A stretch of 64,000 nucleotides of DNA from Candidatus Saccharimonadales bacterium (GTDB taxonomy: Bacteria; Patescibacteriota; Saccharimonadia; Saccharimonadales; OMJO01). The DNA lies in assembly GCA_035480035.1 (NCBI GenBank), contig DATIID010000001.1, positions 457,323 through 521,322 on the forward strand, written 5' to 3'. The position numbers were made by a program, and so were the translations under genes. Below the pieces are notes generated by a model that did no database searches, was not told where the DNA came from, and was given only the letters and a program-made list of their open reading frames with translations. Shown one piece after another: positions 4,187 through 58,425 of this stretch. Numbering within the stretch: the stretch's first letter is position 1; every line of letters begins with the position of its first letter.

Positions 4187-5467
4187 TTAGACAGTTTGGC
4201 CGATACGTTCGGGCGAAATCCAAGTGCCGCGAACTAATTTGCGGTTAGCAATGAACTTGAAGTTGAATAGACAGCGAAACGCTGCAATCACCTGGATCGA
4301 AGTCATGACATAGAAAACTATGTACATCAGTGGTGCTAGCAAAGTCATACGAATTTTGCGGATTAAGGTCATGTGTTCATCACCCCAAAGGGCTAACAGT
4401 AGAAAGCCCGTCATAGTCGCCCACGCAATGATGAATAGAATTGGGTTGTGATACTTTAAAGCCAAGTAAATGAAGTATGTGAAGTAAATTGGTTCAAGTA
4501 GTAGTTGGAATTCGGCCCAAACCGCCATTGGTAAACGTACCCAAGATAGCATCTTGCTATATTTACGATGGCTGTTAAATAACATCTGACGGTTCTGATA
4601 AATGGCTTGTAGTCCACCAAACTTCCAACGATAACGTTGTTTTAACAGACTCTTGTATGTCGAAACCGGTTCGGTATAAACTAACACGTCACTGGCGTAA
4701 TGAATCCGGTTTTCCTTATTACCAAGCGATGCTAATGCCAAACTAAGAGCAATATCTTCAGTCTTCATAGACTCGTCGTAACCGCCAAGTTTATTCATGG
4801 CATCACGTGTGTACATCGCACCTGCCCCACCGACAATGTATTCACTGTTTGAGATATTGTTGAACTTCTTTGAACGAAAACCTCCCAAGAATTCAAACTG
4901 CTGCAATGTACCAAGTATCTTACCGTTATCCATAATTCGGACATTTGGCGACAAAGCGCTTGGTTCATCTTCGATAAAGTGACGAACAGCTCGTGAAATA
5001 GCATAGCGGTCAATCGTACAGTCGGAATCTAGTGTCATGATAATATCACCCCGAGCTTGACGTTTTAGGGCATGGTTTAACGCGCCGGCTTTGCCGCGAT
5101 TAACATGCATATTTAGCAAGCTAATGTTGCGGCTAGGGTGGGCACAAATATATTGCATCACAATTTGACGAGTATTATCGATTGAAGCATCATCGATAAC
5201 AACAATTTCAAATTTCCGGTAAGTACTAGCCAGTAAGCTGTCTAAACACCTTTTGATAACTACTTCCTCGTTGTGGGCCGGAACTAAAACCGTTACCAGT
5301 GGGCGTTTTCGATAAGCTCGACGGTGGGGGTGTTTGCGGCGCATTGACTGACGGCGAATTAAACGCATGTCATAGATGCTGGCACCAATCAATGACATAG
5401 TGCTGTAGGTTAGGCCAATTAAAACTGTCAGGCCAAATAGAATCAAAAGGAAGTTAATTGATACCAT
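4187..5467 (-). CDS. processive family-2 glycosyltransferase (PgaC/IcaA/cellulose/chitin-synthase-like), membrane-embedded
   Basis: It has an N-terminal TM and the motifs VIDDASIDNT, LDSDC, TEDIALS and QRYRWKFGG (the D, DxD, TED, QxxRW series), followed by a C-terminal multi-TM bundle. Confidence 0.8.
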   Translation of the reverse strand: MVSINFLLILFGLTVLIGLTYSTMSLIGASIYDMRLIRRQSMRRKHPHRRAYRKRPLVTVLVPAHNEEVVIKRCLDSLLASTYRKFEIVVIDDASIDNTRQIVMQYICAHPSRNISLLNMHVNRGKAGALNHALKRQARGDIIMTLDSDCTIDRYAISRAVRHFIEDEPSALSPNVRIMDNGKILGTLQQFEFLGGFRSKKFNNISNSEYIVGGAGAMYTRDAMNKLGGYDESMKTEDIALSLALASLGNKENRIHYASDVLVYTEPVSTYKSLLKQRYRWKFGGLQAIYQNRQMLFNSHRKYSKMLSWVRLPMAVWAEFQLLLEPIYFTYFIYLALKYHNPILFIIAWATMTGFLLLALWGDEHMTLIRKIRMTLLAPLMYIVFYVMTSIQVIAAFRCLFNFKFIANRKLVRGTWISPERIGQTV

Positions 5468-10691: not shown

Positions 10692-10702
10692 GAACTGGGG
10701 TG

Positions 10703-10731
10703 ATTATAACGTGGTATATCTGTTAATGCAA
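10703..10731 (-). promoter_or_regulatory. candidate promoter of tRNA-His
   Basis: On the minus strand: TTGCAT, 17 nt, TATAAT. The -10 ends 11 nt before the tRNA 5' end. Confidence 0.5.
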
Positions 10732-14120: not shown

Positions 14121-15524
14121 TCATTCAAGAACCGTATCAAGTGGGTGCAAATATATTCTGTCAGTACCAGACCAGTCAATGTCAACATCCCCGGCTCTTT
14201 CTTGGATCAAATCACCTCGAATCTTTGCCCTGGTATCTACAGGCGGTGAGTTTCGTCTTTTATCGGCAGTACGTGGAGAGTGTTTTGTTTTGAATCCTTG
14301 CCATCCAACGACGTTTTTATTTCTTAAAGTTTCAGCGATACCGCCGCCAATCCAGTCCCATGCATAATCAAAGCGGCACATTTTCTCCGAATACAACTTT
14401 ACACCTTCTTTACCCATCTTCTTGCGCATAGCTATCATTCTGGCAACTGATTCAACCTGGTTAGCAACTGATTCAGGATTGTCCGACATTCTATCCGCAA
14501 CATCAATAATTTCAGGCAAAACTTGTTTAGCCTCATCATCTAGTACTTCCAGTTCTTCATTAGCATCAAGTACAATCTCACATATTTCCTTCAGAATATT
14601 GAGTGGTTTTTCACCCTCATGTTTCTCGTTCTCCCTATATACGGCAATTTGATTCTTATATCCGTATTGACCAACTATATGGGCTGCCTTTACTGGGTTA
14701 CGAAGTATAGGGAAATCAGTGTTTTCATCTTGTTCAATTACTCTTAGTAAAGAATTTGTAATTACCAAGCTAGCCCTCAGCGGCCAAGCAAAGCTTAACG
14801 CATCGCTCGTAACAGTTTCCACGCGGGCTAGTTCGCCATCTTCTTTAAACGGATATCTGACTAATGGTCTCTGTTGGTAGTTTTGATATGTTGCGCCAGT
14901 AATTGATGTGATTGAAAGCCTAGGCGAATGATGAAAATCAGTTTTACCTCTATCGTTTATCAATAAACCACCAGAGCCAAACATTGCACCTTTAGCTACA
15001 TTTAAAGTCGCAAGAGCACTCATAACGATTACTGAAGGAATGTCAGCTGGCAAACTAGTAGTATTGTTAAGATGGATTCCTCGCGAAGTGCGATTATGGT
15101 CGACAATTCTTCTATTTAATTGAAAATCCTGCAACACGCCTGATTCTCTCAAGCGACCAAACAAATCCAGCATTATGTCGTCGCCATCAAATACTCGATG
15201 TACCGCTTCCTCAGCAGTTGACGTTTCGGGTGTTGCATATTCGGGACCACTCGGATCAATGTAAAACCTGCCTCCGTTGGATAACATGCCTGATGGATTA
15301 CTATATAATCCCATATCCTCAAGTACATCAGTTATGCTACTACGATCAATGTGGTCAGTACCTTTTGACTTGGGTTCCTTGTACAGTCCCAAGGGCTCGT
15401 CAATGGAGTGGCACTTGCCAACAATTTCGTATGTCTTATCACCAGGTAGCGTAAACATTGCCGAGTATTCAGTTTCTACTCCGTAGACATTCGGTGTTTC
15501 AGCTCTTTTAGACATGAATGCCAT
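14121..15524 (-). CDS. Pup-ligase/deamidase family protein (PafA/Dop homologue)
   Basis: YGVETEYS (compare GIETEFG), NGGRFYIDPSGPEYATPE (compare NGARLYLDVGSHPEYATAE), and a C-terminal PPVDTRAKIRGDLI...DIDW block as in PafA. GGGAG lies 4 nt before ATG 15524; the longest ORF starts at 15557. Confidence 0.75.
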   Translation of the reverse strand: MAFMSKRAETPNVYGVETEYSAMFTLPGDKTYEIVGKCHSIDEPLGLYKEPKSKGTDHIDRSSITDVLEDMGLYSNPSGMLSNGGRFYIDPSGPEYATPETSTAEEAVHRVFDGDDIMLDLFGRLRESGVLQDFQLNRRIVDHNRTSRGIHLNNTTSLPADIPSVIVMSALATLNVAKGAMFGSGGLLINDRGKTDFHHSPRLSITSITGATYQNYQQRPLVRYPFKEDGELARVETVTSDALSFAWPLRASLVITNSLLRVIEQDENTDFPILRNPVKAAHIVGQYGYKNQIAVYRENEKHEGEKPLNILKEICEIVLDANEELEVLDDEAKQVLPEIIDVADRMSDNPESVANQVESVARMIAMRKKMGKEGVKLYSEKMCRFDYAWDWIGGGIAETLRNKNVVGWQGFKTKHSPRTADKRRNSPPVDTRAKIRGDLIQERAGDVDIDWSGTDRIYLHPLDTVLE

Positions 15525-15560
15525 AATGCTCCCGTTTGTAAAAGCATGCAAGCACAAGCA

Positions 15561-15594: not shown

Positions 15595-15671
15595 TGGTCG
15601 GGGTGAGAGGACTCGAACCTCCGACCTCCGCGTCCCAAACGCGGCGCGCTAGCCAACTGCGCCACACCCCG
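15595..15671 (-). tRNA. tRNA-Pro (TGG)
   Basis: Reverse complement: CGGGGTG TGGCGCAGTTGGCTAGCGC G CCGCG-TTTGGGA-CGCGG ..GGAGGTTCGAGTCCTCT CACCCCG A CCA. Confidence 0.9.
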
Positions 15672-15682
15672 ACACCAAAATA

Positions 15683-15754
15683 AGACAAACCCACGGTTTT
15701 TCTCATCGCTCATCGGCAAAGCCGACCCTAAAGGGCAAGTTCGCTGCTCTTTTC
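15683..15754. repeat. hairpin-rich intergenic element, copy 1 (possible structured RNA)
   Basis: agacaaacc-cac-ggtttttct catcgctca TCGGC-aaa-GCCGA CCCT-aa-AGGG caagttcgctgctcttttc. It is near-identical to 41452-41527 except for the central hairpin. Confidence 0.6.
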
Positions 15755-15798
15755 CCTTTAGTAACAAGGGTAATTTTACTATAAAACCCCTGTTATAG

Positions 15799-16599
15799 CT
15801 AGGCAATTATCTTCTGAATATGGGTGATTGATTTAGCTAACATGGTTTGGTCATCACTTTTGATTAAAACGGCGTTAAATTGAAATGGACCCTCCGTTTC
15901 TAATTGGTTGGGACTAACTTTGCCATCTCGCCAACGATTTATAATCGTTTCAAGTTTAACGCCTAAACTGGAATTCAATGAGCCACACATGCCAACGTCA
16001 GTAATATGTGCTGTGCCATTTGGCAAAACCATAGCGTCGGCTGTTGGCACATGCCAATGATCGCCAATAACAGCCGTGGCACGTCCATCTAAGTAGTAAC
16101 CAATTACTCGCTTTTCACTGCTAAAGTCACCGTGGAAGTTAACGATGGTAGCAATCGATTTAACATGTTTGGTGTCTCCTAGAATTTTATCGATAGTAAT
16201 CAGTGGATTATCAACTGGTTTATCAGCATCACGGCCGACTATTTGACCAAGTAGACTAACAATCAACACCGGACCTTTGAGTGTTTGAAAATACTTGTAG
16301 CCCTTACCGATTGTGCCGATCGGATAATTAGCCGGACGAATCACTGGCCGATCCGGATCATTCAGGTATGTATGGAGTTCGCTACGATGGGTTGTCCAGT
16401 TGCCGCCGGTAAAAAAATCAACGCCAATTGCTTCAAGTCTTTTGAAATCTTTTAGTGATAGACCTTTACCCTCAGTCACATTCTCACCTTGAGCAATTAT
16501 TAACTCAACCTTGTGCTTAGCAACCACCTCTGGCAAAACTCGCCGTACTACTTCAATACCCGGTTCTCCCATAATGTCACCAATGTAAAGGATATTCAT
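15799..16599 (-). CDS. ymdB: YmdB-family metallophosphoesterase (2',3'-cyclic-nucleotide phosphodiesterase-like)
   Basis: The N-terminus MNILYIGDIMGEPG... and the overall length are typical of the YmdB family. It lies in the rny neighbourhood, as in Firmicutes. Confidence 0.75.
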   Translation of the reverse strand: MNILYIGDIMGEPGIEVVRRVLPEVVAKHKVELIIAQGENVTEGKGLSLKDFKRLEAIGVDFFTGGNWTTHRSELHTYLNDPDRPVIRPANYPIGTIGKGYKYFQTLKGPVLIVSLLGQIVGRDADKPVDNPLITIDKILGDTKHVKSIATIVNFHGDFSSEKRVIGYYLDGRATAVIGDHWHVPTADAMVLPNGTAHITDVGMCGSLNSSLGVKLETIINRWRDGKVSPNQLETEGPFQFNAVLIKSDDQTMLAKSITHIQKIIA

Positions 16600-16602
16600 A
16601 TA

Positions 16603-17238
16603 TTACAACTCAAAGCTTTGGCCATCAACGGTCTTAATGAATTTGATTTGGTTGCGGTCAAAGACTGATTCAAACATATCATACGAACCAGACCGTGCTT
16701 GATCGTTCCAGTGCCAATCATGCACTGGGAATATGCTTTTAGGCTTTAGCTTTAAAGCCATATTTGCGGCCTCCAACATCGAACCCCATGGGGCGGTCGC
16801 CGTTAAAGCCAAAATTTCTTTTGACTCTTCTAAATCGTGACGGTCGCCTCCAACTGTCAATTTATCTGCAAAATGAACTGCAATGTTTTCCGGCGCTTCA
16901 CCAAATGGTGCCAATGGGGCGTGACGTTTTGTCGAAAATATCTTTATAAATTCGTTGCCTTCACTGCTGGCATTTTGAATACCATTTTCCGAAAGTTGTT
17001 TAACTACACTTGGCGTGGTGATAATTTGAACGTTGGGGAATTTTTTTACCAGTGCTTGGATCGCTGGTAGATGAAAATGGTCAAAATGTTCATGGGTTAT
17101 GACGATAGCATCAAGTTTGTTTAAGTTATCTATATTTATCAAACCCGAATCCCACGAGAAAGAGCCGGGGTCAAACAACGCTACTTTATCACCTTCCTCG
17201 GCTAATACACAGGCGTGTACAAACTTAGTTAGCCTCAT
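16603..17238 (-). CDS. MBL-fold metallo-hydrolase
   Basis: It carries the HxHxDH motif (ITHEHFDHF) and later His/Asp ligands. Confidence 0.7.
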   Translation of the reverse strand: MRLTKFVHACVLAEEGDKVALFDPGSFSWDSGLINIDNLNKLDAIVITHEHFDHFHLPAIQALVKKFPNVQIITTPSVVKQLSENGIQNASSEGNEFIKIFSTKRHAPLAPFGEAPENIAVHFADKLTVGGDRHDLEESKEILALTATAPWGSMLEAANMALKLKPKSIFPVHDWHWNDQARSGSYDMFESVFDRNQIKFIKTVDGQSFEL

Positions 17239-17831
17239 ATTTTTCTCCTTTCTTCAATCCACTTAGGGGTGGCTGTGAAAGTTATTTTACTCATATGATC
17301 AACCTCTTCTTCAGTTAAATCATACACAGCTTGGTACGCGACTTCGACACTTCCATGAACTGCCTTAGAAAAATCTAAGTCTAATTTAGCAGCAACTTTC
17401 TTGAGCGCAGCTTCATTTTTTGCTTCTAGTTCGACAAACGGTGGAATCCATGGCCACTCATCAAGTTCAATTTCAACGTCATCTAAAATCCAGCTTTCAC
17501 GCTTGGTTTCCTGATAGGACGTTTCTTTTAAGCCCAGAGCCTTTAAAAACTCTTCAGCACTGTTAAAGCTATCAATTGTCAAGTTAACTTCTTTTGTCCC
17601 ATGCAAACTGCGATCATTAAGCTGCTTGTACGTCAGTGTAATTTTGTTGCCTTCATCCCGCACCCTGACCCAGCCAGCCACTTGCCGTTCCAGTTGATGG
17701 TCTGGAAAATCAAAATTTTTACGCTTCATTAACCGTTCCGACTTGACCAGTTTGGCGTTCAAAACCTTTAATTTAGAACGCAATTTTGCGAAATCAATAT
17801 TTAAAAATTTTGCTTCAATCTCCGTCTGCAT
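17235..17831 (-). CDS. CYTH-domain protein (CyaB-type cyclase / triphosphatase family)
   Basis: It has the N-terminal ExExK signature (TEIEAKF) and a length of ~200 aa. Confidence 0.65.
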   Translation of the reverse strand: MQTEIEAKFLNIDFAKLRSKLKVLNAKLVKSERLMKRKNFDFPDHQLERQVAGWVRVRDEGNKITLTYKQLNDRSLHGTKEVNLTIDSFNSAEEFLKALGLKETSYQETKRESWILDDVEIELDEWPWIPPFVELEAKNEAALKKVAAKLDLDFSKAVHGSVEVAYQAVYDLTEEEVDHMSKITFTATPKWIEERRKI

Positions 17832-17848
17832 AACTCTATTGTAACTGA

Positions 17849-18013
17849 TTAGAGCTGGAGATTCTTGTTTTTAGAAACTTGCCCGCCTACACCAAAGGCT
17901 GCACCTAGCAAACCGATAATTAAACCAACTATCAATCGACCAAAAATTAATACAATGGTCCCAATTAAAACTAATACGGCAGCGACAATGAAAAACAATT
18001 TCCAGAATTGCAT
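17849..18013 (-). CDS. small two-TM membrane protein (54 aa)
   Basis: MQFWKLFFIVAAVLVLIGTIVLIFGRLIVGLIIGLLGAAFGVGG. The longer ORF-track form (to 18157) overlaps the rny 3' end and is rejected. Confidence 0.45.
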   Translation of the reverse strand: MQFWKLFFIVAAVLVLIGTIVLIFGRLIVGLIIGLLGAAFGVGGQVSKNKNLQL

Positions 18014-18059
18014 CGGGTTTGGGTCTTCAACTTTGTCTGGTTTGTTTGGCACGACTGAC

Positions 18060-19574
18060 CTACTTGGCAAACTCGATGGCTCGGGTTTCACGAATAACGT
18101 TAACCTTGATGGTACCAGGGTATTGCATGGTTGATTCAATCTTTGTCGCAATATCACGGGCTAGTTTAATAGCACTCAAATCATCGATATCCTGTGGTCT
18201 AACAAATACCCGGACTTCACGACCGGCACTAATGGCGTAGGATTTTTCAATACCCGGAAAACCGTTGGCTACATTTTCCAGATCTTTCATGCGCTCAGCG
18301 AAATTCTCGGCGCTGATATTACGTGCGCCAGGACGCGATGCGCTGATGGCATCAACAACCCGAACAATCAAAGCTTCAGTAGTAGTTGCTTCCATATCGT
18401 CGTGGTGGGCTTCGGCAGCATGAGCAACCTCTTCAGGAGCACCGTATTTACGAAGCATTTCACCACTAATGTGGTGGTGCTTACCTTCAATCTTATGGGT
18501 TAATGCTTTGCCTAGATCGTGAACTAGGGCGGCATACTTAGCGGTCTTAACATTGGCACCCACTTCTTCGGCGATGATGCCTGCAATGTGCGCCATTTCA
18601 GTACTGTGTTTCAAAACATTTTGGCCATAACTAGTTCGGTACTTTAATTCACCAAGAAGTTGCAAAATTTCGCGTGGGATACCAATGATACCAACTTCGC
18701 GAGCAGCATCTTCACCAGCACGCATGACATCTTTTTGGACATTGGCTTGAGCTTTCTCAACTATTTCTTCAATTCGGCCGGGATGAACGCGGCCATCTTT
18801 GAGTAGCATCTCGAGGGCTTGACGAGCAACTTCACGGCGAACTGGATCAAAGCTGCTCAGAATGATCATACCAGGTGTTTCATCAACCATAATGTCGACG
18901 CCAGTCGCTCGTTGCAGAGCTTGAATGTTACGACCTTCCTTGCCGATAATCCGGCCTTTCATTTCCTCGTCTTCCAATTTAACTGAAGTAACTGTACGTT
19001 CGGCGGTGACTTCACTGGACATGCGCTCCATGGCACCAACAAGGATGGAACCGGCCTGTTCTTCGGCTTGATCTCTGGCTTCGTCTTGAAGTTTAGCGAT
19101 CAGGCCGGTCAGATCGCCGCGAATATCGCGTTCGGTCATGGTCATTAATTTTTCAGCCGCTTCGGCTTTAGTCAGCTTGGCGATTTTCTCTAACTTGTCT
19201 TGCTGTTTTTTGCGAATGTCGCGAATTTCATCTTTAAGCTGTTCGATTTCAGTTTCGCCAGTCCGAAGTTTCTCAGACCGTTTATCAATGTCATCGAGCT
19301 TTTTATCAAAAGCTATTTCACGGTCAACTAAGCGTTGCTCGATTTCTTTAAGTTCTTTACGCCGGGTCTGTTCCTCTCGGCGAGTCTTGTCAACATCGGC
19401 ATCGGCTTTTTCCCGAGCTTCATCAACTAATTTTGTGGCTTCTTTTTTGGCTCTTGTTAGTTCTTTATTGGCGGCATCTTGAACTGAGCCTAATTTCTTA
19501 CGCGTGACTACCGTATTGGCACCAAAGCCAACACCAATACCAACCAACGCCAGTACAATGGTAATTGGATCCAT
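18060..19574 (-). CDS. rny: ribonuclease Y
   Basis: It has an N-terminal TM, a long charged coiled coil, a KH domain (GKEGRNIQAL) and an HD domain (LVHDLGK). Confidence 0.93.
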   Translation of the reverse strand: MDPITIVLALVGIGVGFGANTVVTRKKLGSVQDAANKELTRAKKEATKLVDEAREKADADVDKTRREEQTRRKELKEIEQRLVDREIAFDKKLDDIDKRSEKLRTGETEIEQLKDEIRDIRKKQQDKLEKIAKLTKAEAAEKLMTMTERDIRGDLTGLIAKLQDEARDQAEEQAGSILVGAMERMSSEVTAERTVTSVKLEDEEMKGRIIGKEGRNIQALQRATGVDIMVDETPGMIILSSFDPVRREVARQALEMLLKDGRVHPGRIEEIVEKAQANVQKDVMRAGEDAAREVGIIGIPREILQLLGELKYRTSYGQNVLKHSTEMAHIAGIIAEEVGANVKTAKYAALVHDLGKALTHKIEGKHHHISGEMLRKYGAPEEVAHAAEAHHDDMEATTTEALIVRVVDAISASRPGARNISAENFAERMKDLENVANGFPGIEKSYAISAGREVRVFVRPQDIDDLSAIKLARDIATKIESTMQYPGTIKVNVIRETRAIEFAK

Positions 19575-19756
19575 ATTTATCCCCTTAACAATCCTAAGAT
19601 AAGCCAGCAGACATCACTATCACTTCATTAGTCCACGCTTTTCTTAGATATTCAAAATTGATAGAAAAACACTTTCGGACGTTGCTCTCAAACTAGCGCA
19701 TGCATCCTTGTCTAATAACTATACGCTTTTGGTCTCGGCTCGGTCAACCAACTAAT

Positions 19757-20149
19757 TTAGGATTTTGGTAAGGTGATGTGGACTGGTGAACCATAATCCG
19801 GTACCACTAATTTTTCATTTTGGCCATCTAGAAGTGCTTGAATTCCACGCTCTTGCCAATCATTATTTTGGGCGCCAATTATTGGAACACTGAGTGATTC
19901 AGCCAAAGCATTAGCAACTGTTAGGCCAATTCTTAGCCCAGTAAAACTGCCTGGGCCCTTAAAGCAAATAATACCTTCAATATCCGACCAGTCTTTTTTT
20001 TGATTTGTTAGTAAGTCATAAATTTTAGTGTGTAGAGTTTCGGCTAGCTGGCGATGAGCGGTCCAAATCTCATATTTTAATTTGGTTTCGTCCACGTAAA
20101 GACCAATTTCGGCTTCGGGTTTGTCGGTGCGTATTGTTAGTATTAACAT
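19757..20149 (-). CDS. tsaB: tRNA t6A protein TsaB, short form (N-terminal domain only)
   Basis: It has GPGSFTGLRIGLTVANALA and is 130 aa, against ~230 aa for typical TsaB. Confidence 0.75.
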   Translation of the reverse strand: MLILTIRTDKPEAEIGLYVDETKLKYEIWTAHRQLAETLHTKIYDLLTNQKKDWSDIEGIICFKGPGSFTGLRIGLTVANALAESLSVPIIGAQNNDWQERGIQALLDGQNEKLVVPDYGSPVHITLPKS

Positions 20150-20619
20150 TATTTTTCGACCAGATAACTTAGTTGCTTAGGATAATTATATTTGAACTCT
20201 CGACGGTTTTTGTCTAGGACTTTGATGTTAATGGTTAGTCGTTTATTAGGCAAAACATTTTTGACAATGCCAGCCCATTCTATGATGATACTTACGTCTG
20301 AATCATTTAACCAATCAGTTAATTCATTGGCCATTAAGCCAGCGCTAGCCAAACGATAAAAATCAAAGTGAACTAATTTAGATGGCTTATGACCTTTGGC
20401 TGTATATTCGTGGCTGATTGTAAAGCTGGGGCTGGAGACTTTATCTCTACTGCCCATACCTTTGGCTAAACCGCGCACAAAGGTCGTCTTGCCGCCACCT
20501 AGATCACTGATTAGTTCAATAACTTCACCGCCCCGTAGTTTGGAGCCCAGACGTTCGCCGAGTTTTTCGGTAACGTCGGAACTGGTAGAGACGGTTCGCA
20601 ATGTCATGTCGGTATTCAT
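20149..20619 (-). CDS. tsaE: tRNA t6A ATPase TsaE
   Basis: It has the SDLGGGKTTF P-loop, SPSFTI and HFDFYRL. The start is ambiguous (ATG 20628, 20619 or 20607), and every option overlaps the upstream gene's 3' end. Confidence 0.8.
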   Translation of the reverse strand: MNTDMTLRTVSTSSDVTEKLGERLGSKLRGGEVIELISDLGGGKTTFVRGLAKGMGSRDKVSSPSFTISHEYTAKGHKPSKLVHFDFYRLASAGLMANELTDWLNDSDVSIIIEWAGIVKNVLPNKRLTINIKVLDKNRREFKYNYPKQLSYLVEK

Positions 20620-22741
20620 ATGCTGCATATCCTACCGCGAGCACCCCAACACCAGCAAGTATATTAGTATGTAGTGAACCAGGTATTAAAGGCGTGTTGT
20701 CATTACTTGATCCAATAGCGGCATTAGTTTTGGACTTAGTCGATTTCGGTTTTTTAGCAGCTTTCTTTTTAGTAGTTTTCTTTTTAGTTTTGGTTGATTT
20801 TTTATTAGACTTGGTCGACCCCGATGATACCGTTGGCTGAGTATAAACGTTGGTTGCTCCAGCTGTCGGTGAGCCAGTCCATTGCCAAGTACCATCAATT
20901 TTTGCCCAAGCTTCACCTTCTGGCGCATCACTATATGGATCCGTTTGGCTTATGACCGTACCATTTGAATCGATTAGTCTCGCTTGGCCGCTGGCATTAG
21001 CCAATGACAAATTAGTATCACCACTAGTTAAAACCAAATACTCACCAGCTGGGATTGATTGGTTTTGTATGGTGTAACTATAGCTGTAACTCGAGCCAGT
21101 TTGGACTTTATAACCAGTTAGGTCTAGATTGCTCGATGATGGATTGTACAGCTCAACATATTCATTAATTTCATCAGTTTGCGGCGATGCTGGGTTTGGT
21201 AATAACTCACTAATAATCACTGGCGAAGTGGTATTAGGAGAATCAGTCGGTTGATTATTATCATTATCTGGTACCGGAAACTCGGTTGGTTGTGGTGTAC
21301 CAGTATCAGTGGCGACTGCACTATTATCAAGTTCCGGTGTCGGCGTAGCCAACCAACGCCAACCACCATCAAAGCGTGCCCAACTCTGGCCTTCAGGCGC
21401 GTCTTGATATTGAAAAGTTTGAAGCGGCACAAAAACGCCATTGTTGTCAAAACGACCCCAGCTGACAGTACTAACGCCACTGTTTTTTAGCGACAAGCTA
21501 TGAATTGAAGTACTATCACTGAAATCATAATAAACACTATATTGATTTGGACTCAAAAATTCATCAGATCCAAATTTGTACTGGGTGCCATTAACAACCA
21601 CGCCACAATAGCCCAGGAAGGCAGGTTGATCAGTGGTTGTGGTCAGTTCAAGCCATTCGTTACCTGTATCGTCGCCAACCGGATTAGGTATAATCTCGTC
21701 AATAACTGCGTCAGTACAAGCGTCAGACGGTACCAACAGCGGATTACTGCTAGCAATGCTTGGTACTGTTTGTAATTTGTTAGCTGAGCCTAAGGTCACT
21801 GCATAAGTGGCCTTCCAGCTGCTTGAAAATTTAGAGTAGGTCTGGTCAGCCAACAAAACTGGTTGGGTAACTAAACTGTTGATAATTGGTAGTGTTACAT
21901 TACCATAATCGCTAGCGGGCCAGAATTCTAGGGTATTAGCAAAGTCGGCGTTCAGTGGCACGGGGATGATATCTGACAATACATCCACGACGTTTTCAAT
22001 AACTCCAAGTGGTTGGTCGGTTTGTAGATCGCCAGTAGCTAGGGCAAATAAACTGCTGTTGATTAAGATTGGACAGTCGGTTGCTAGATTGGCGCCAGTG
22101 GCTTTCACTATTTCTAGTGCCGGAGTTATGTCACCACCATTGCCATTAATCAACATAGGTTGAATTTCGTTTAGTGATAGGCCATTACATGGGTGAGCGG
22201 AAACCTCAAAATCATTGCTGTTAATGTCACTGTCTAAAAATAGACCGTAATTATCTTGTTTTCGAACTAATGATGAACCTTTAGGGTGAGCAGGTGCGGT
22301 TGTACCTGTAAAAGTTGAGTCGGTGATAATGCCCCAACTAATCTCATCTAATATGATTGCTCCTTTAATTAAACGCAAAGTGCCGCCTTGGTCTGCTAGG
22401 GCTAAACCAGTCGGGAAACCACTAAGACTAGGGTTGGCAGACTTTAAACTGTCGGACACGAACGATAACGTATTATGAGCAGGCAGATTGCCAAACAAAT
22501 TAATAATTTTGGAATTAGGCGTACCACTAGCTGTCCAATATTTAATGATTACGCCGCTAAGGTCATAGTTATTATCGGTATTGTTAGCGACGATAATGTA
22601 ATCCTCGCCAGTACTATTAAAACCTTGAGTTTGCACATCGACGATACACAAACTACAAGTCGGTGAAATTGAGTAAGCTTTTAATGGCAAAACGATTAGC
22701 AGAGCTGTCACCACCCAGGTGAGTAGCACTAATCGCCTCAT
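20525..22741 (-). CDS. secreted, C-terminally membrane-anchored protein with three lamin-tail-domain (LTD) repeats and a Lys-rich juxtamembrane tract
   Basis: It has a signal peptide (MRRLVLLTWVVTALLIVLPLKAYS) and LTD signatures IDEIIPNPVGDDTGNEWLEL and ISELLPNPASPQTDEINEYVELYNPSSSNLDLTGYKV, plus a degenerate first copy. These are followed by KSNKKSTKTKKKTTKKKAAKKPKSTKSK, a TM and a basic tail. Confidence 0.75.
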   Translation of the reverse strand: MRRLVLLTWVVTALLIVLPLKAYSISPTCSLCIVDVQTQGFNSTGEDYIIVANNTDNNYDLSGVIIKYWTASGTPNSKIINLFGNLPAHNTLSFVSDSLKSANPSLSGFPTGLALADQGGTLRLIKGAIILDEISWGIITDSTFTGTTAPAHPKGSSLVRKQDNYGLFLDSDINSNDFEVSAHPCNGLSLNEIQPMLINGNGGDITPALEIVKATGANLATDCPILINSSLFALATGDLQTDQPLGVIENVVDVLSDIIPVPLNADFANTLEFWPASDYGNVTLPIINSLVTQPVLLADQTYSKFSSSWKATYAVTLGSANKLQTVPSIASSNPLLVPSDACTDAVIDEIIPNPVGDDTGNEWLELTTTTDQPAFLGYCGVVVNGTQYKFGSDEFLSPNQYSVYYDFSDSTSIHSLSLKNSGVSTVSWGRFDNNGVFVPLQTFQYQDAPEGQSWARFDGGWRWLATPTPELDNSAVATDTGTPQPTEFPVPDNDNNQPTDSPNTTSPVIISELLPNPASPQTDEINEYVELYNPSSSNLDLTGYKVQTGSSYSYSYTIQNQSIPAGEYLVLTSGDTNLSLANASGQARLIDSNGTVISQTDPYSDAPEGEAWAKIDGTWQWTGSPTAGATNVYTQPTVSSGSTKSNKKSTKTKKKTTKKKAAKKPKSTKSKTNAAIGSSNDNTPLIPGSLHTNILAGVGVLAVGYAAYEYRHDIANRLYQFRRYRKTRRTSGLQTTGR

Positions 22742-22820
22742 GGTGAAAGTTATTGTACAACTCGAAAATGCTAACCTTTTAAGTTATCCACAGCTTTTTT
22801 TAGGTTATAATAAATCCAAT

Positions 22821-23336
22821 ATGTTGCAGCTTGGTGGATCACTGGTTAATAAGGCAGTTCTTAGTCTGCGTACTAGTACGAAAGTTGGCGAAACGGTCAA
22901 TCCAATATTTAATCCCAATAATTTAAAAATTGAGGGATTTTATGTAAAAACCAACGCGAGTAAAGACAATTTGATTTTGGTCAGTCAGGACATCCGGGAA
23001 AATAGCCTGCAAGGTTTTATTATTAATGACCAGGAAGTGCTGGTTGAGCCCGAAGAATTGGTTCGATTAAAAGAAATTTTGAAACTAGATTTTCACCTAC
23101 TAAACATGCCGGTCGTAACCGTTGGTAAAGTGAAATTAGGTAAGGTCAATGACTACGCCACCGAAAGTGAGACTTTATACGTCCAGAAACTTTATGTCGG
23201 CCAATCGCTGCTGAAGAGTTTTAGCGGTGGTCAGTTGAGTATTGACCGCGACCAAATTATTGAAATTACCAACAAAAAAATTGTCGTTCAGGATATTTTG
23301 CAAGGTGAAAAAGCCGGCGCCATCGCTCCAGCCTAA
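22821..23336 (+). CDS. tandem PRC-barrel-like protein
   Basis: Two repeats resemble YlmC/YmxH PRC barrels (KAVLSLRTSTKVGETV..., NMPVVTVGKVKLGKVND...). ATG 22821 lies 9 nt after TATAAT; the ORF-track start 22719 overlaps the LTD gene. Confidence 0.5.
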   Translation: MLQLGGSLVNKAVLSLRTSTKVGETVNPIFNPNNLKIEGFYVKTNASKDNLILVSQDIRENSLQGFIINDQEVLVEPEELVRLKEILKLDFHLLNMPVVTVGKVKLGKVNDYATESETLYVQKLYVGQSLLKSFSGGQLSIDRDQIIEITNKKIVVQDILQGEKAGAIAPA

Positions 23337-23935
23337 TCTTCGGAGTTCATCACTGATTTAATATCGTCGTAGCTATAGCCTTGGCGGGCTAAGTATTGCA
23401 TTAGCTTAGTGTCGTCACGATATTTGGTTTGCCGGCGTTTTCGTTCGATTAAATCTTTCAAAGTTTCGCGGTCGGTTGTTTCGTCTTCGGCTAAAACTTG
23501 ATCGATTGTTTCGCTAGAAATCCCCTTTTGGCGTAACTCTTGGATTAGTCGCCGTTTGCTGATCGGCTTGAGTAGCCGACGGTTTTCGACCCAGCGATGA
23601 GCAAAATCATTATCATCAAGAAGTTTATGGTCTTTTAATTTGTTAATTATCGACGCACTGTTGTCTTCGTCGTGTTTTTTGCGCCTCAGATAATCGCGTA
23701 GTTCTTTTTCACTACGCGGACGCCTGGCGACCAAGTTCAAAGCTAGCCCGTAGATTTTGTCCAATTTAGATCTTTCTTTAAACTTATCCAATTCGCCTTT
23801 TGTAAGTTCTTGTCCAGTATGAACGCCACTGGCAATCAATTCGCTTTCACCTAAACTAAACGAATACTTGTCATCAACAAAAATCGAAAAGCGATCGAGT
23901 CGTTTAACTTGTTGCTTGATCGCTGTGATTTTCAT
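23333..23935 (-). CDS. recX: recombination regulator RecX
   Basis: It shows RecX three-helix repeats (ALNLVARRPRSEKELRDYLRRK..., DDNDFAHRWVENR) and lies downstream of recA. Confidence 0.85.
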   Translation of the reverse strand: MKITAIKQQVKRLDRFSIFVDDKYSFSLGESELIASGVHTGQELTKGELDKFKERSKLDKIYGLALNLVARRPRSEKELRDYLRRKKHDEDNSASIINKLKDHKLLDDNDFAHRWVENRRLLKPISKRRLIQELRQKGISSETIDQVLAEDETTDRETLKDLIERKRRQTKYRDDTKLMQYLARQGYSYDDIKSVMNSED

Positions 23936-24110
23936 TGCTTGATTCGTCACGATCAAGAGCGCGGTCAAGAATTACATGCGCCGCAGCTCTAACTACTTCT
24001 GGTGAAGCTTTAATTTCACGAAGAGATTGTATAAGGACATTTTCTTCTATAGTGTGCGCCAACTGGTCAAGTGTTTCTGTAGGCATGGGTGTACTCGATT
24101 GCTCTGCCAT
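23904..24110 (-). CDS. 68-aa acidic hypothetical protein between recA and recX
   Basis: The ATG is 2 nt after the recA stop, and the last recA codons (GCC AAG GAG GAC TAA) supply an AAGGAGG SD. It overlaps the recX start by 32 nt. Confidence 0.55.
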   Translation of the reverse strand: MAEQSSTPMPTETLDQLAHTIEENVLIQSLREIKASPEVVRAAAHVILDRALDRDESSNENHSDQATS

Positions 24111-24112
24111 GT

Positions 24113-25159
24113 TTAGTCCTCCTTGGCTGCAGTTGTGGCTCGGACTTTTTTAGCAACTTCGTCTAAAACTTTAGGATTCTCTTCCAGGTATTTTTTGGCG
24201 GCTTCGCGGCCTTGGGCAATTTTTTCATCGTTATAGCTAAACCAAGCGCCGGATTTTTCGACGATTCCTTCAGCCGTTGCTAGATCTAATACATCGCCAC
24301 TTTTACTGATACCTTCGTTGTACATAATGTCGAATTCAGCTTGGCGGAAAGGTGGTGCAACTTTATTTTTGACAACCTTGACCCGCGTACGGTTGCCAAC
24401 GACATCTTCACCCTGTTTAATTTGACCGATCCGACGAATATCCATTCGTATCGAGGAGTAAAACTTCAGAGCATTCCCACCGGTAGTAGTTTCCGGATTG
24501 CCAAACATCACACCAATTTTCATGCGGATTTGATTAATAAATACCACAGTGGCCTTACTACGACTAATAACACCAGTCAGTTTCCTCAAAGCTTGGCTCA
24601 TTAGACGAGCCTGAAGGCCGGGCAAACTATCGCCCATATCACCTTCGATTTCAGCGCGGGGCACAAGGGCAGCAACCGAGTCGACGACAATAATATCAAC
24701 CGCGTTGGAACGTACTAAAGTCTCGACAATTTCGAGCGCCTGTTCACCGTTATCCGGCTGTGATAGCAGCAAATTAGCGGTATCAACACCAATGCGCTGA
24801 GCGTACTGCGGATCTAAGGCATGCTCAGCATCTATAAAAGCGGCGGTGCCACCGCTACGTTGAACTTCGGCGATAGCGTGAAGTGTCAGTGTTGTTTTAC
24901 CTGAGCTTTCCGGTCCATAAATCTCAACAACTCGACCACGCGGCAATCCTCCACCGAGTGCTATATCCAGGCTTAGTGCGCCGGTTGAGGTTGTTTCGAT
25001 ATCAACTTTATGGGCTTCACCTAACTTCATAATCGCGCCCTTGCCAAACTGTTTTTCAATGTTTTCCAAAGCAAGACCGAGAGCCTTTGACTTACCGGCT
25101 GATTGATCGCTTGCAGTTGTATCTTTAGTCGTCTGTTTTGAATCTTTTTTTGCAGCCAT
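24113..25159 (-). CDS. recA: recombinase RecA
   Basis: It has the [11 protein letters not shown]-loop and full-length RecA similarity, with a GGAGGAG SD. Confidence 0.97.
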
Positions 25160-40895: not shown

Positions 40896-40909
40896 CCAAA
40901 ACAGGGGTT

Positions 40910-40938
40910 ATTATCTGTTAAATACGAGCTAAAGTCAA
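40910..40938 (-). promoter_or_regulatory. candidate promoter of tRNA-Lys
   Basis: On the minus strand: TTGACT, 17 nt, GATAAT. The -10 ends 14 nt before the tRNA 5' end. Confidence 0.45.
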
Positions 40939-40939
40939 T

Positions 40940-41425
40940 CTATCGACGACGCTTCTTTTTGTCATCATGTGGGCTGAGAGTCAACCAAGCCAATAACAGT
41001 GTCAAGATAGTTGCGGCGGCAATCAGTGCATTTTGTGAGTTATCGGCAGTTTTACCAATTTGATTGGTTAGCAGCTGGTGTTGAATACCACCAGGTAGAT
41101 AACCCATTATAAGCGTCCCAAGAGCCGCGCAAGTGGCCGCTAATGGCAATAAGTGAAAGATGGTTTTTGAGCGTGACATCGATTTACGTAAAAAGAAAAG
41201 TGACAAGACAATCGGTGTTAAAAGTAGACCGAGATTTACATAATTACCAAAGTCTTTGTGCGCAAAAAATGCATTAAGCGCTAGCATCGTGTCGTAAGAA
41301 ACATACTGTGCCAGAATTAAACCAGCCGCCACGCTCATATAAAGATAGATAGAGTTAACGCGCATTAATATTGCTAAGACGAATGGTAAGCCAGCGATTA
41401 TGCCTAAAATGACATAACTATTCAT
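40940..41425 (-). CDS. polytopic membrane protein, unknown function
   Basis: It has five hydrophobic segments and a basic tail DDKKKRRR. Confidence 0.5.
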   Translation of the reverse strand: MNSYVILGIIAGLPFVLAILMRVNSIYLYMSVAAGLILAQYVSYDTMLALNAFFAHKDFGNYVNLGLLLTPIVLSLFFLRKSMSRSKTIFHLLPLAATCAALGTLIMGYLPGGIQHQLLTNQIGKTADNSQNALIAAATILTLLLAWLTLSPHDDKKKRRR

Positions 41426-41451
41426 AGCCCAATCATATCACAAGCTTAATG

Positions 41452-41527
41452 AGACAAACCTGCGGTTTTTCTCATCGCTCGTCGGCAAAGCCGAGTTCGC
41501 AAGCGAACCAAGCTCGCTGCTCTTTTC
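41452..41527. repeat. hairpin-rich intergenic element, copy 2 (possible structured RNA)
   Basis: agacaaacc-tgc-ggtttttct catcgctcg TCGGC-aaa-GCCGA GTTCGC-aa-GCGAAC caagctcgctgctcttttc. Confidence 0.6.
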
Positions 41528-41541
41528 ACTAAATAAATATT

Positions 41542-42447
41542 CTAAGCGCCGACACGGTCGCGACGACGTTTTTTGCTTGCGGCATTTTGTTCAATGTAAT
41601 CCAATATTTTTTCAGCAACGTTACAATCTGTTACTTTCTCAATCGCAAAACCTGGACTGGAATTTACTTCTAATACCAGCGGTCCACGATTACTGCGCAT
41701 CATATCAACACCACAGATTGGTAGTCCCATGGCATGGGCAGCTTTTTGCGCCATCTTGCGTTCGGCATCGGTTAGTTCAACCAGTTTACCCTCACCACCT
41801 TGGTGAATGTTAGAGCGAAAATCGTCGTCCAAACTCTGACGCTGCATGCTGGCAACTACTTCACCGCCGACAACAAAGGCACGAATGTCCGTACCGGCAC
41901 TCTCTTCGATAAATTCTTGAACCAAGAAGTTCACACCCTCAACATAGAAGGCCTGCATCACCGCTTGAGCGGCTTTACGTGTCTCGGCAAGTACCACGCC
42001 GTTACCGTGAGTACCGCGAGCGACTTTAATAATTAGTGGCGCGCCACCAGCTTGCTCAATAAGGTCGTTAACCTCGGCTGTACCACGTGAGAACAAAGTC
42101 TTGGGAATACCAGCGCCGGCACGAGCTAAAATCTGCATGGAACGCAGTTTGTCGCGCGAACGAGTAATAGCAATCGAGCTGGAAGTTGTAAATACGCTTT
42201 GCATTTCAAACTGACGAACGACAGCTGTACCATACTTTGTAACGCTGGCTGCAATCCGTGGAATAATCACGTCAATATCACGCAAAACTTCACCTTCATA
42301 GCGCACCACGGGATGATTTTGCTCCACACTCATATAACATTTGGTGTAATCAATTACCCGAACACTATGGCCACGTTTAATCGCTTCTTTCTTCAAGCGT
42401 CTGGTTGAGTAATTACCTGGTCCTCTGGATAAAATTGCAATGTTCAT
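41542..42447 (-). CDS. rimK: RimK-family alpha-L-glutamate ligase (ATP-grasp)
   Basis: It has MNIAILSRGPGNYSTRRL... and ATP-grasp motifs throughout. Confidence 0.88.
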   Translation of the reverse strand: MNIAILSRGPGNYSTRRLKKEAIKRGHSVRVIDYTKCYMSVEQNHPVVRYEGEVLRDIDVIIPRIAASVTKYGTAVVRQFEMQSVFTTSSSIAITRSRDKLRSMQILARAGAGIPKTLFSRGTAEVNDLIEQAGGAPLIIKVARGTHGNGVVLAETRKAAQAVMQAFYVEGVNFLVQEFIEESAGTDIRAFVVGGEVVASMQRQSLDDDFRSNIHQGGEGKLVELTDAERKMAQKAAHAMGLPICGVDMMRSNRGPLVLEVNSSPGFAIEKVTDCNVAEKILDYIEQNAASKKRRRDRVGA

Positions 42448-58297: not shown

Positions 58298-58425
58298 ATA
58301 TTCGGACAAGTTGAACAGAGGTGAGTATACCTTAAATCGTTAAACTTAGCCAGTTGGAAGACTAAAAACATTAGCGACTTGCATTTTTAGATAATAGGAC
58401 TATATTGGGTATAAAAGAAACACTC

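Follow-up and report, generated by a model that had tools for sequence, protein, structure and literature searches.

The window analysed here, a 64,000-nt (64-kb) stretch of a Candidatus Saccharimonadales contig, contains two similar intergenic elements in which one hairpin has been exchanged for another, and the question raised by this locus is what such an element is and why it is kept. The original prediction read it as a structured RNA or a REP/MITE-like module. When both copies were compared, the left blocks of 43 nt (15683-15725 and 41452-41494) differed at 3 positions and the right blocks of 19 nt (15736-15754 and 41509-41527) at 1, as had been claimed; hairpin 2 (TCGGC-aaa-GCCGA) was the same in both, and hairpin 3 was replaced yet self-complementary (CCCT-aa-AGGG in copy 1, GTTCGC-aa-GCGAAC in copy 2). 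Hairpin 1 indeed differed only in its loop (cac or tgc), but it had been described as too short, its full extent being AT(A/G)AGA-C-AAACC / GGTTT-T-TCTCAT, with 11 pairs around a conserved C/T mismatch. Therefore, the conserved unit spans 15679-15758 (copy 1) and 41448-41531 (copy 2), on the minus strand in both cases.

A covariance model built from 35 copies was applied to the window and to all the loci found by the pattern scans described below. Within the 64 kb it recovered copy 1 (94.0 bits, E 3e-25) and copy 2 (107.9 bits, E 3e-29) only, the next match (17.8 bits) being hairpin 1 on the other strand. Likewise, each conserved block occurred exactly twice in the window at up to 3 mismatches, with 0.00 and 0.02 occurrences expected from shuffles. 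The minus strand of copy 1 is the strand transcribed with tRNA-Pro, and on it the element runs from a purine-rich tail (AAGGGAAAAGAGCAGCGAACUUG) through hairpin 3, hairpin 2 and the linker UGAGCG to hairpin 1. Hairpin 1 (ATAAGAcAAACC-cac-GGTTTtTCTCAT, 15680-15706) forms the tRNA-facing end; hairpin 2 occupies 15713-15725, hairpin 3, of the CCC...GGG type, 15726-15735, and a near-invariant unpaired block 15736-15758 (plus strand CAAGTTCGCTGCTCTTTTCCCTT). In copy 2, which has an identical orientation relative to transcription, the corresponding minus-strand parts are hairpin 1 (ATGAGAcAAACC-tgc-GGTTTtTCTCAT, 41449-41475), hairpin 2 (41482-41494), hairpin 3 of the GTT...AAC type (41495-41508) and the unpaired block (41509-41531, plus strand CAAGCTCGCTGCTCTTTTCACTA). 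Single-sequence folding of the window copies was modestly better than that of shuffles (z -1.8 to -2.4), so the window alone would not settle the question of structure.

The minus-strand stop codons of a YmdB-like gene (15799-15801) and of the RimK gene (41542-41544) were found where they had been placed; the location of the element just 3' of a stop codon applies to both window copies, but not throughout the family. Copy 1 lies between a promoter-like region (15763-15806, minus strand, TTGCCT-17-TATAGT plus the motif TAAAAT-TACCCTTGTT, which other tRNAs of the window have in front of them as well) and tRNA-Pro(tgg) (15595-15671, minus strand), the 5' end of which is 7 nt beyond hairpin 1. Given this promoter-like region, copy 1 is inside a tRNA leader. 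Copy 2 is found on the minus strand 10 nt after the rimK stop codon and 22 nt before a 161-aa ORF (40940-41425), with no stable RNA gene adjoining. An intrinsic (Rho-independent) terminator was discarded for both copies, as the minus strand holds no such site and the hairpins are followed by GAGCGA, UCGGC or variable flanks; the absence of a T-run after the stems on this strand had also been predicted.

Some further features of the region around copy 1 were recorded. An inverted repeat (AACAGGGG-N16-CCCTTGTT, 15757-15798, minus strand) extends across the promoter-like region between the ymdB stop and copy 1, and the plus strand of the same interval has CCCTT-tagtaac-AAGGG and then TAATTTTAC, a weak terminator-like site. 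The minus-strand genes at 15802-25159 follow the order recA ... rny (RNase Y) ... ymdB, which we take to resemble the recA-rny-ymdB neighbourhood of Bacillus. On the other side, a 478-aa protein with a match to the Pup-ligase family (PafA/Dop-like, E 1.4e-32) is encoded at 14124-15557 (minus strand) between two tRNA-Pro genes, and the syntenic locus L083 has no similarity in this interval.

The extent of the family was addressed with two scans, of an exact 20-base core pattern against a species-representative genome collection and of a 23-base pattern (the core extended 3 bases into hairpin 1) against metagenomes. The first returned 51 loci, comprising 39 with the whole element, nearly all from metagenome-assembled Saccharibacteria/Saccharimonadales and a few from otherwise labelled bins, and 12 chance matches in high-G+C genomes where the rest of the element was missing. 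The second added 32 contigs, mainly from soil, rhizosphere and peat. Because both public scans demand 20 to 23 exactly matching core bases, they under-sample diverged copies as well as the true phylogenetic spread. Over all loci the covariance model gave 78 matches, 72 of them distinct, so that the family has at least 72 distinct copies; the original prediction had hinged on further copies and conservation in related genomes, and many were found. Exact-core matches numbered 1-3 per species genome, including single ones on contigs of 558-776 kb, and copies of the same genome were never identical to one another. In the exact-core scan the carriers were a minority of the sampled Saccharibacteria species, with a patchy spread.

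No copy was found in collections of phages, plasmids and viral contigs. With Rfam 15, the window yielded only tRNAs at gathering thresholds, and both copies gave only chance-level matches at E up to 10 (best overlaps sR19, 8.5 bits, and rli61, 12.3 bits); no description of the element was found in the literature on non-coding RNAs of Saccharibacteria, Patescibacteria and TM7x. The element is a conserved, previously uncatalogued unit of 80-90 nt, restricted to Saccharibacteria as far as sampled. A LOOT RNA (Rfam RF03000, 73 bits), unrelated to it, was detected on the same Saccharibacteria contig as one of the copies (L029, 3881-4004).

The family settled the structure. In an alignment of 78 sequences, 97.3% of the cells were paired and 15 of the 22 base pairs showed changes on both sides; none of 500 shuffles reached the observed values of pairing or covariation, and pairing fell to 36-55% when the partner was slid by one column. 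Covariation, suggested beforehand as a check, affected the upper stem of hairpin 1, where AAACC/GGTTT is swapped for CCCC/GGGG, and all 6-7 pairs of hairpin 3, every one of which changes on both sides family-wide. Hairpin 3 undergoes wholesale replacement with pairing kept, in two main types (CCC..GGG and GTTT..AAAC) with many variants and over a length range of 10-21 nt (10, 12, 13, 14, 15, 16, 18 ... nt), and hairpin 2 covaries solely in diverged relatives (L070b, L011B). Almost invariant were the lower stem of hairpin 1 with its internal mismatch, the linker CGCTCR and the block CAAGCTCGCTGCTCTTTTCCC, the unpaired blocks being the most conserved part of an element conserved at about tRNA level. 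The element is real, structured and strongly constrained, as observed in its family membership, covariation and context and in its relocation and inversion between sites.

Mismatches among 1449 pairs were about equally rare in all classes (G-U 13, A-C 19, other 20); therefore, pairing is kept on both strands and wobble cannot reveal which of them is functional. From the alignment, the pairing constraint looks strand-symmetric and would suit an RNA role and, equally well, one at the DNA level or on both strands. We treat a possible fourth helix, in which the invariant right block would pair with the variable flank, as weak: complementarity was slightly higher than with shuffled flanks (4.43 versus 3.95 nt), no stronger than with flanks permuted among copies, and due in part to the recurrent promoter motif TGCTA. 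A small protein-coding gene was rejected, since hairpin 3 lengths differ by non-multiples of three and break the frame; the conserved ATG belongs to the hairpin-1 stem, and is ATA in copy 1. In CCC..GGG-type copies with CCCTAAAGGG as hairpin 3, the flank past the invariant block is often CCCTTTAG (window 15726-15765, L036, L035, L072, L078), and an alternative helix of 7-8 bp, UAAAGGG/CCCUUUA, could enclose the invariant block as a loop; it is present when copy 1 and the helix-25 insertions described below are folded to minimum free energy.

The genomic context of the copies, absent from the original prediction together with the helix-25 copies and the true extent of hairpin 1, gave the main result: about half of all copies, including copy 1, adjoin the 5' end of a stable RNA. 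In 35 of them, 2-13 nt (mostly 2-7) separated the end of hairpin 1 from the mature 5' end of a stable RNA (tRNA, 5S or 23S) whose gene lies on the strand opposite to the search pattern, and the order in the RNA sense is purine-rich tail, hairpin 3, hairpin 2, hairpin 1 and then the tRNA, 5S or 23S 5' end. About 8 extra cases, detected by eye or with Rfam, corresponded to contig ends or to intron-bearing, odd or fragmentary tRNAs. The adjoining tRNAs represent at least 15 anticodon types, the 5S-adjacent copies are those of L011, L041 and L050, and the 23S 5'-adjacent copy is in L072. In 2 copies the end of hairpin 1 was 3-4 nt from a 3' end instead (tRNA-Gly in L007, 23S in L011); the opposite end of the element never abutted a stable RNA among the family copies. 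The remaining sites were the 23S-5S spacer, mRNA intergenic regions such as that of window copy 2, and helix 25 of the 23S. Just 1-3 of the roughly 45 tRNA genes of a genome carry the element, and these differ between relatives; therefore, maturation of the neighbour does not need it. Well-preserved copies in the opposite orientation relative to transcription, as inferred from the neighbouring genes, were found in L007, L023, L081, L047, L011B and L044.

At three loci, fragmentary or odd 5' parts of tRNAs were observed directly by hairpin 1 (L005 ~1650-1770, L025 ~900-1100, L077 1429-1850), with an intact copy of the same tRNA 110-190 nt further on. In L077, the unit formed by the tRNA 5' part, the element and the promoter region is duplicated in tandem.

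Many copies have a promoter 4-18 nt upstream. In the window, four of the six tRNA promoters are 12-26 nt from the tRNA and consist of a -10 hexamer plus nACCCCTGTT, and copy 1 sits between one such promoter and tRNA-Pro. A promoter inside the element was discarded, as no -10-like hexamer was found at a usable distance from the tRNA start. Regarding the motif itself, its sites in the window are all on the minus strand (10693-10708, 15763-15778, 40900-40915 and 58314-58329), and it was also found in L023, L024, L029, L030, L047 and L081; in stable-RNA promoters the (extended) -10 hexamer is directly followed by nACC(C/T)CTGTT, in the element-less tRNA genes of the window the motif ends 2-16 nt before the tRNA, and AACAG...CTGTT inverted repeats flank some of the -10 regions. 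This motif may be a clade-specific discriminator/start region, or an operator.

With a promoter so close upstream, the element could itself be the product, a leader-derived small RNA acting in trans or as a protein sponge that borrows any strong stable-RNA promoter. Its 3' end would be set just past hairpin 1 by RNase P or by excision of the spacer or intervening sequence, and its invariant purine-rich strands (GGGAAAAGAGCAGCGAGC, CGAGCG) would bind a protein or a pyrimidine-rich RNA. Conservation at the level of a tRNA in spite of only 1-3 copies per genome and an interchangeable host tRNA, with the strongest constraint on unpaired blocks, speaks for this explanation, as does the fact that every common context would free a fragment of the same sense. 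However, the only exact-core copy is reversed in some near-complete genomes (L023, 729-kb contig; L007, 464-kb contig), G-U pairs are favoured on neither strand, no complementary target was present in the window apart from three chance 10-mers, and most sampled Saccharibacteria species would do without such an RNA. Therefore, we regard a trans-acting product as unlikely.

Position in stable-RNA leaders and rRNA spacers is also what could be expected of a cis-regulatory signal for the neighbouring gene, such as a boxA/boxB-like antitermination site, an attenuator or riboswitch, or an unusual terminator, and the plus strand carries a boxA-like octamer, TGCTCTTT, which we take to be the first 8 nt of the E. 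coli rrn boxA consensus. A boxA/boxB site was nevertheless rejected, as in at least 35 copies the octamer and the adjacent tRNA, 5S or 23S are on different strands, the octamer falls on the non-transcribed strand in most copies with inferable direction, and a better boxA-like sequence, CATTTTAACAAC, is available in the tRNA-Ala-23S spacer of L078. A riboswitch, a T-box or a ribosomal-protein leader was rejected in turn, since the downstream genes are tRNAs of at least 15 kinds, 5S, 23S, thrS, ftsA and others, and so was the leader of any particular protein gene, the proteins encoded downstream being unrelated (ComEC, MFS, kinase, sigma factor, ThrRS, ArgRS, TruB, FtsA, Tdk). With the tRNA starting 2-7 nt past the element, an expression platform has no room; there is no U-run on the sense strand, the downstream genes are mutually unrelated, and Rfam gives no match. 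Regulation of the neighbour is thus a very improbable role.

The copies within rRNA gave a different view of hairpin 1. Two of them (L072:1112-1193 and L078:909-988) are inside helix 25 of the 23S, the classical site of intervening sequences. In these insertions the 5' flank repeats part of the hairpin-1 half in antisense, so that the whole insertion folds as one long hairpin (z -8.2 and -9.1), with a near-continuous stem of at least 21 bp; in stand-alone copies hairpin 1 has only 11-12 bp. Similarly, in L011 an inverted second copy after the 23S 3' end pairs with the copy before the 5S and closes the whole spacer (z -4.0). Besides the one at helix 25, the 23S gene of L072 contains in its 5' domain another insertion or expansion, about 100-130 nt long (~600-740; 23S ~270-400). 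Insertions described in the rRNA of Saccharibacteria are short, are not introns and occur at known RNase III intervening-sequence sites (PMC11270868).

The helix-25 copies resemble the 23S intervening sequences, which are inserted in helix 25 or 45 and removed by RNase III without re-ligation, in their site and long hairpin, and the element as a whole resembles them in size (about 100-150 nt), sporadic distribution and lack of an ORF. In contrast, only L072 and L078 are inserted at such a helix, the window copies and most of the family being located not in rRNA but in tRNA leaders, mRNA intergenic regions or the 23S-5S spacer, and the core consists of three local hairpins with invariant linkers instead of a single long stem. 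As with the tRNA ETS/ITS RNAs (e.g. 3'ETS-leuZ of E. coli), the element is located in precursor segments that are cut off by RNase P and other RNases, and the stem formed by the inverted copies of L011 joins the 23S 3' end and the 5S 5' end as rRNA processing stems do. However, spacer RNAs are normally locus-specific and poorly conserved, whereas here one conserved cassette is common to many tRNAs, 5S and 23S and changes place among them.

The tight apposition of hairpin 1 to mature termini would also fit a new self-cleaving ribozyme that cuts by this hairpin, freeing the downstream 5' end or fragmenting the 23S at helix 25. Like known small ribozymes, the element occurs in varied genomic contexts and has many invariant nucleotides between covarying stems. 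Yet no known ribozyme family matched it in Rfam at E up to 10, the invariant strands lack a complementary partner inside the element, no pseudoknot or closed junction is apparent, and intact copies exist in both orientations, all of which makes self-cleavage highly unlikely.

The comparison of syntenic loci revealed that the element changes both place and direction. It precedes tRNA-Pro(tgg) in the window and in the syntenic L083, and tRNA-Pro(cgg) in the syntenic L068 and L075; between the window and L083 the element plus tRNA is 86% identical, and the flanking coding DNA 67-74%. The spacer between tRNA-Gly(tcc) and tRNA-Arg(tct) is empty in the window and L002 (3-5 nt) and filled (95-97 nt) in L036 and L007, in one orientation and the other, respectively. 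Both orientations were also detected in the tRNA-Arg(gcg) leader, behind the same promoter, and upstream of thrS, where the elements are 88% identical versus 60% amino-acid identity for the ThrRS. Tail-to-tail inverted pairs, 69 nt to 2.6 kb apart and usually with one more diverged member, were observed in L040 (4727-4802/4871-4957), L070 (3150-3238/5867-5943) and L011 (2236-2322/2485-2574).

Such behaviour could be that of a non-autonomous mobile element acting at the DNA level, moved in trans by a recombinase that reads the invariant blocks and the hairpins of single-stranded DNA. It would be IS200/IS605-derived or integron attC-like, its RNA fold would be incidental, and its sites would be just those where insertion is tolerated. 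A position far more changeable than the sequence, the presence of both orientations at the same loci, a strand-symmetric pairing constraint, the conserved mismatched base within the hairpin-1 stem and the patchy distribution among species all point in this direction, as does L064, where the element is flanked by a duplicated gene start of approximately 40 bp. At this locus (4530-4725) the two flanking copies, about 39 nt long and about 85% identical, derive from the start of a 495-aa ORF (MK(S/T)ALILYPHQL...), where one copy is the true start of this gene and the second, a pseudo-start, reads through the element; this is the sole clear long flanking duplication found.

On the other hand, the usual marks of transposition were missing from the family. 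No terminal inverted repeats were found, the ends (AATGAGACAAACC and, for the right end in reverse complement, AAGGGAAAAGAGC) matching at ~6 of 12 positions. Target-site duplication was not general: the longest flanking direct repeats, of 6-8 nt, were no longer than in shuffles, with exceptions at three special loci (L064, L077, L040). No tetranucleotide next to hairpin 1 was conserved across copies, and no transposase or integrase was seen beside any copy. The very low copy number, the lack of identical copies within a genome and of any copy in phages, plasmids and viral contigs, and the freely varying sequence of hairpin 3, which would be unusual in a DNA hairpin recognised by a protein, further render purely DNA-level mobility improbable.

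The same results decide the REP/MITE-like half of the original proposal: its core idea of a structured, repeated unit stood, given the covariation and the many copies in relatives, but the defining features of MITEs and REPs were not there. A classical MITE was rejected for the lack of terminal inverted repeats and of general target-site duplication and for the low copy number, and a MITE-, REP- or ERIC-type repeat because such repeats have many copies per genome, versus 2 in 64 kb and 1-3 exact-core matches per genome. Like REP/BIME and the IS200/IS605-derived PATEs, the element is a hairpin module without an ORF, with a conserved unpaired stem base and without terminal inverted repeats; unlike them, it has no GTAG-type motif or conserved target tetranucleotide, its copy number is very low, its hairpins differ from one another, and no RAYT or TnpA gene was seen beside the copies. 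Correia elements are substrates of RNase III. With them (NEMIS) and with ERIC/IRU, BOX and RUP, the element has in common that it is a short structured repeat, putatively co-transcribed, present in both orientations and conserved in sequence across species at differing positions; it differs in having 1-3 copies per genome and not tens to hundreds, in lacking TA or other target duplications, and in being strongly and precisely biased towards the 5' boundary of stable RNAs. The two window copies were also considered as attL/attR sites of an island, which was rejected: the 25.7-kb interval between them encodes RNase Y (18063-19574), RecA, PilB/C/M, RuvB and ComEC without a shift in composition, and most genomes hold a single copy in the exact-core scan, which counts against an att site.

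Among the explanations considered, the one that we favour, tentatively and from comparative sequence data, is that the element would be a self-folding, removable module of the leader, spacer or intervening-sequence kind that relocates and inverts. In kind, it is quite possibly a low-copy interspersed element with an unusual and precise site preference. The removable module is favoured because nearly all sites of the element belong to discarded RNA (leaders, spacers, the helix-25 loop) and hairpin 1 borders the mature end, and because RNase III-type stems form with an inverted partial copy. According to this explanation, the element would be transcribed within longer precursor RNAs, mostly as a 5' leader before a tRNA, 5S or 23S, and would fold by itself into three hairpins joined by the invariant linkers, with hairpin 1 always facing the mature RNA. 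The normal maturation nucleases would then remove it, RNase P at tRNAs and a double-strand-specific enzyme such as RNase III wherever an inverted partial copy provides a hairpin-1 duplex of at least 21 bp, so that the host RNA would be left unharmed. Over evolution, the module would shift among such 'safe' sites and flip its orientation. Transcription, excision, the acting nucleases and any benefit to the cell are what we infer here.

The removable module does not account for everything. The near-invariant linkers, of about 40 nt, are unexplained by it; they imply that a protein or a second nucleic acid recognises them, and thereby keep both the trans-acting RNA and the recombinase in consideration. 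Also against it are the copies in opposite orientation, the strand-symmetric pairing and window copy 2, without a stable-RNA neighbour. It is possible, though doubtful, that the element is instead a dedicated new RNA device, either a cassette that directs a specific nuclease to stable-RNA 5' ends or a leader-derived regulatory RNA or sponge. The nuclease would make the 5' ends of tRNA, 5S and 23S and that of the 23S fragment after helix 25, the abundance of the sponge or regulatory RNA would be tied to the synthesis of stable RNAs, and in either form the invariant linkers would be the putative binding site of a factor. The small RNA and the DNA-level element, each taken alone, rank above the regulatory signal and the ribozyme, which we consider less likely.

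The RNA biology of Saccharibacteria, which are reduced and host-dependent, has hardly been explored, and few non-coding elements particular to them have been catalogued. The element described here, with tRNA-like conservation and textbook covariation, is nevertheless missing from Rfam, and its covariance model can be used to annotate it and to flag tRNA- and rRNA-adjacent regions and 23S insertions in assemblies. A single cassette ties together tRNA leaders, rRNA spacers and sporadic 23S intervening sequences, which are generally considered apart from one another. The origin of intervening sequences is a long-standing puzzle, and a common cassette gives a testable handle on it, as well as on the maturation of stable RNAs in Saccharibacteria.
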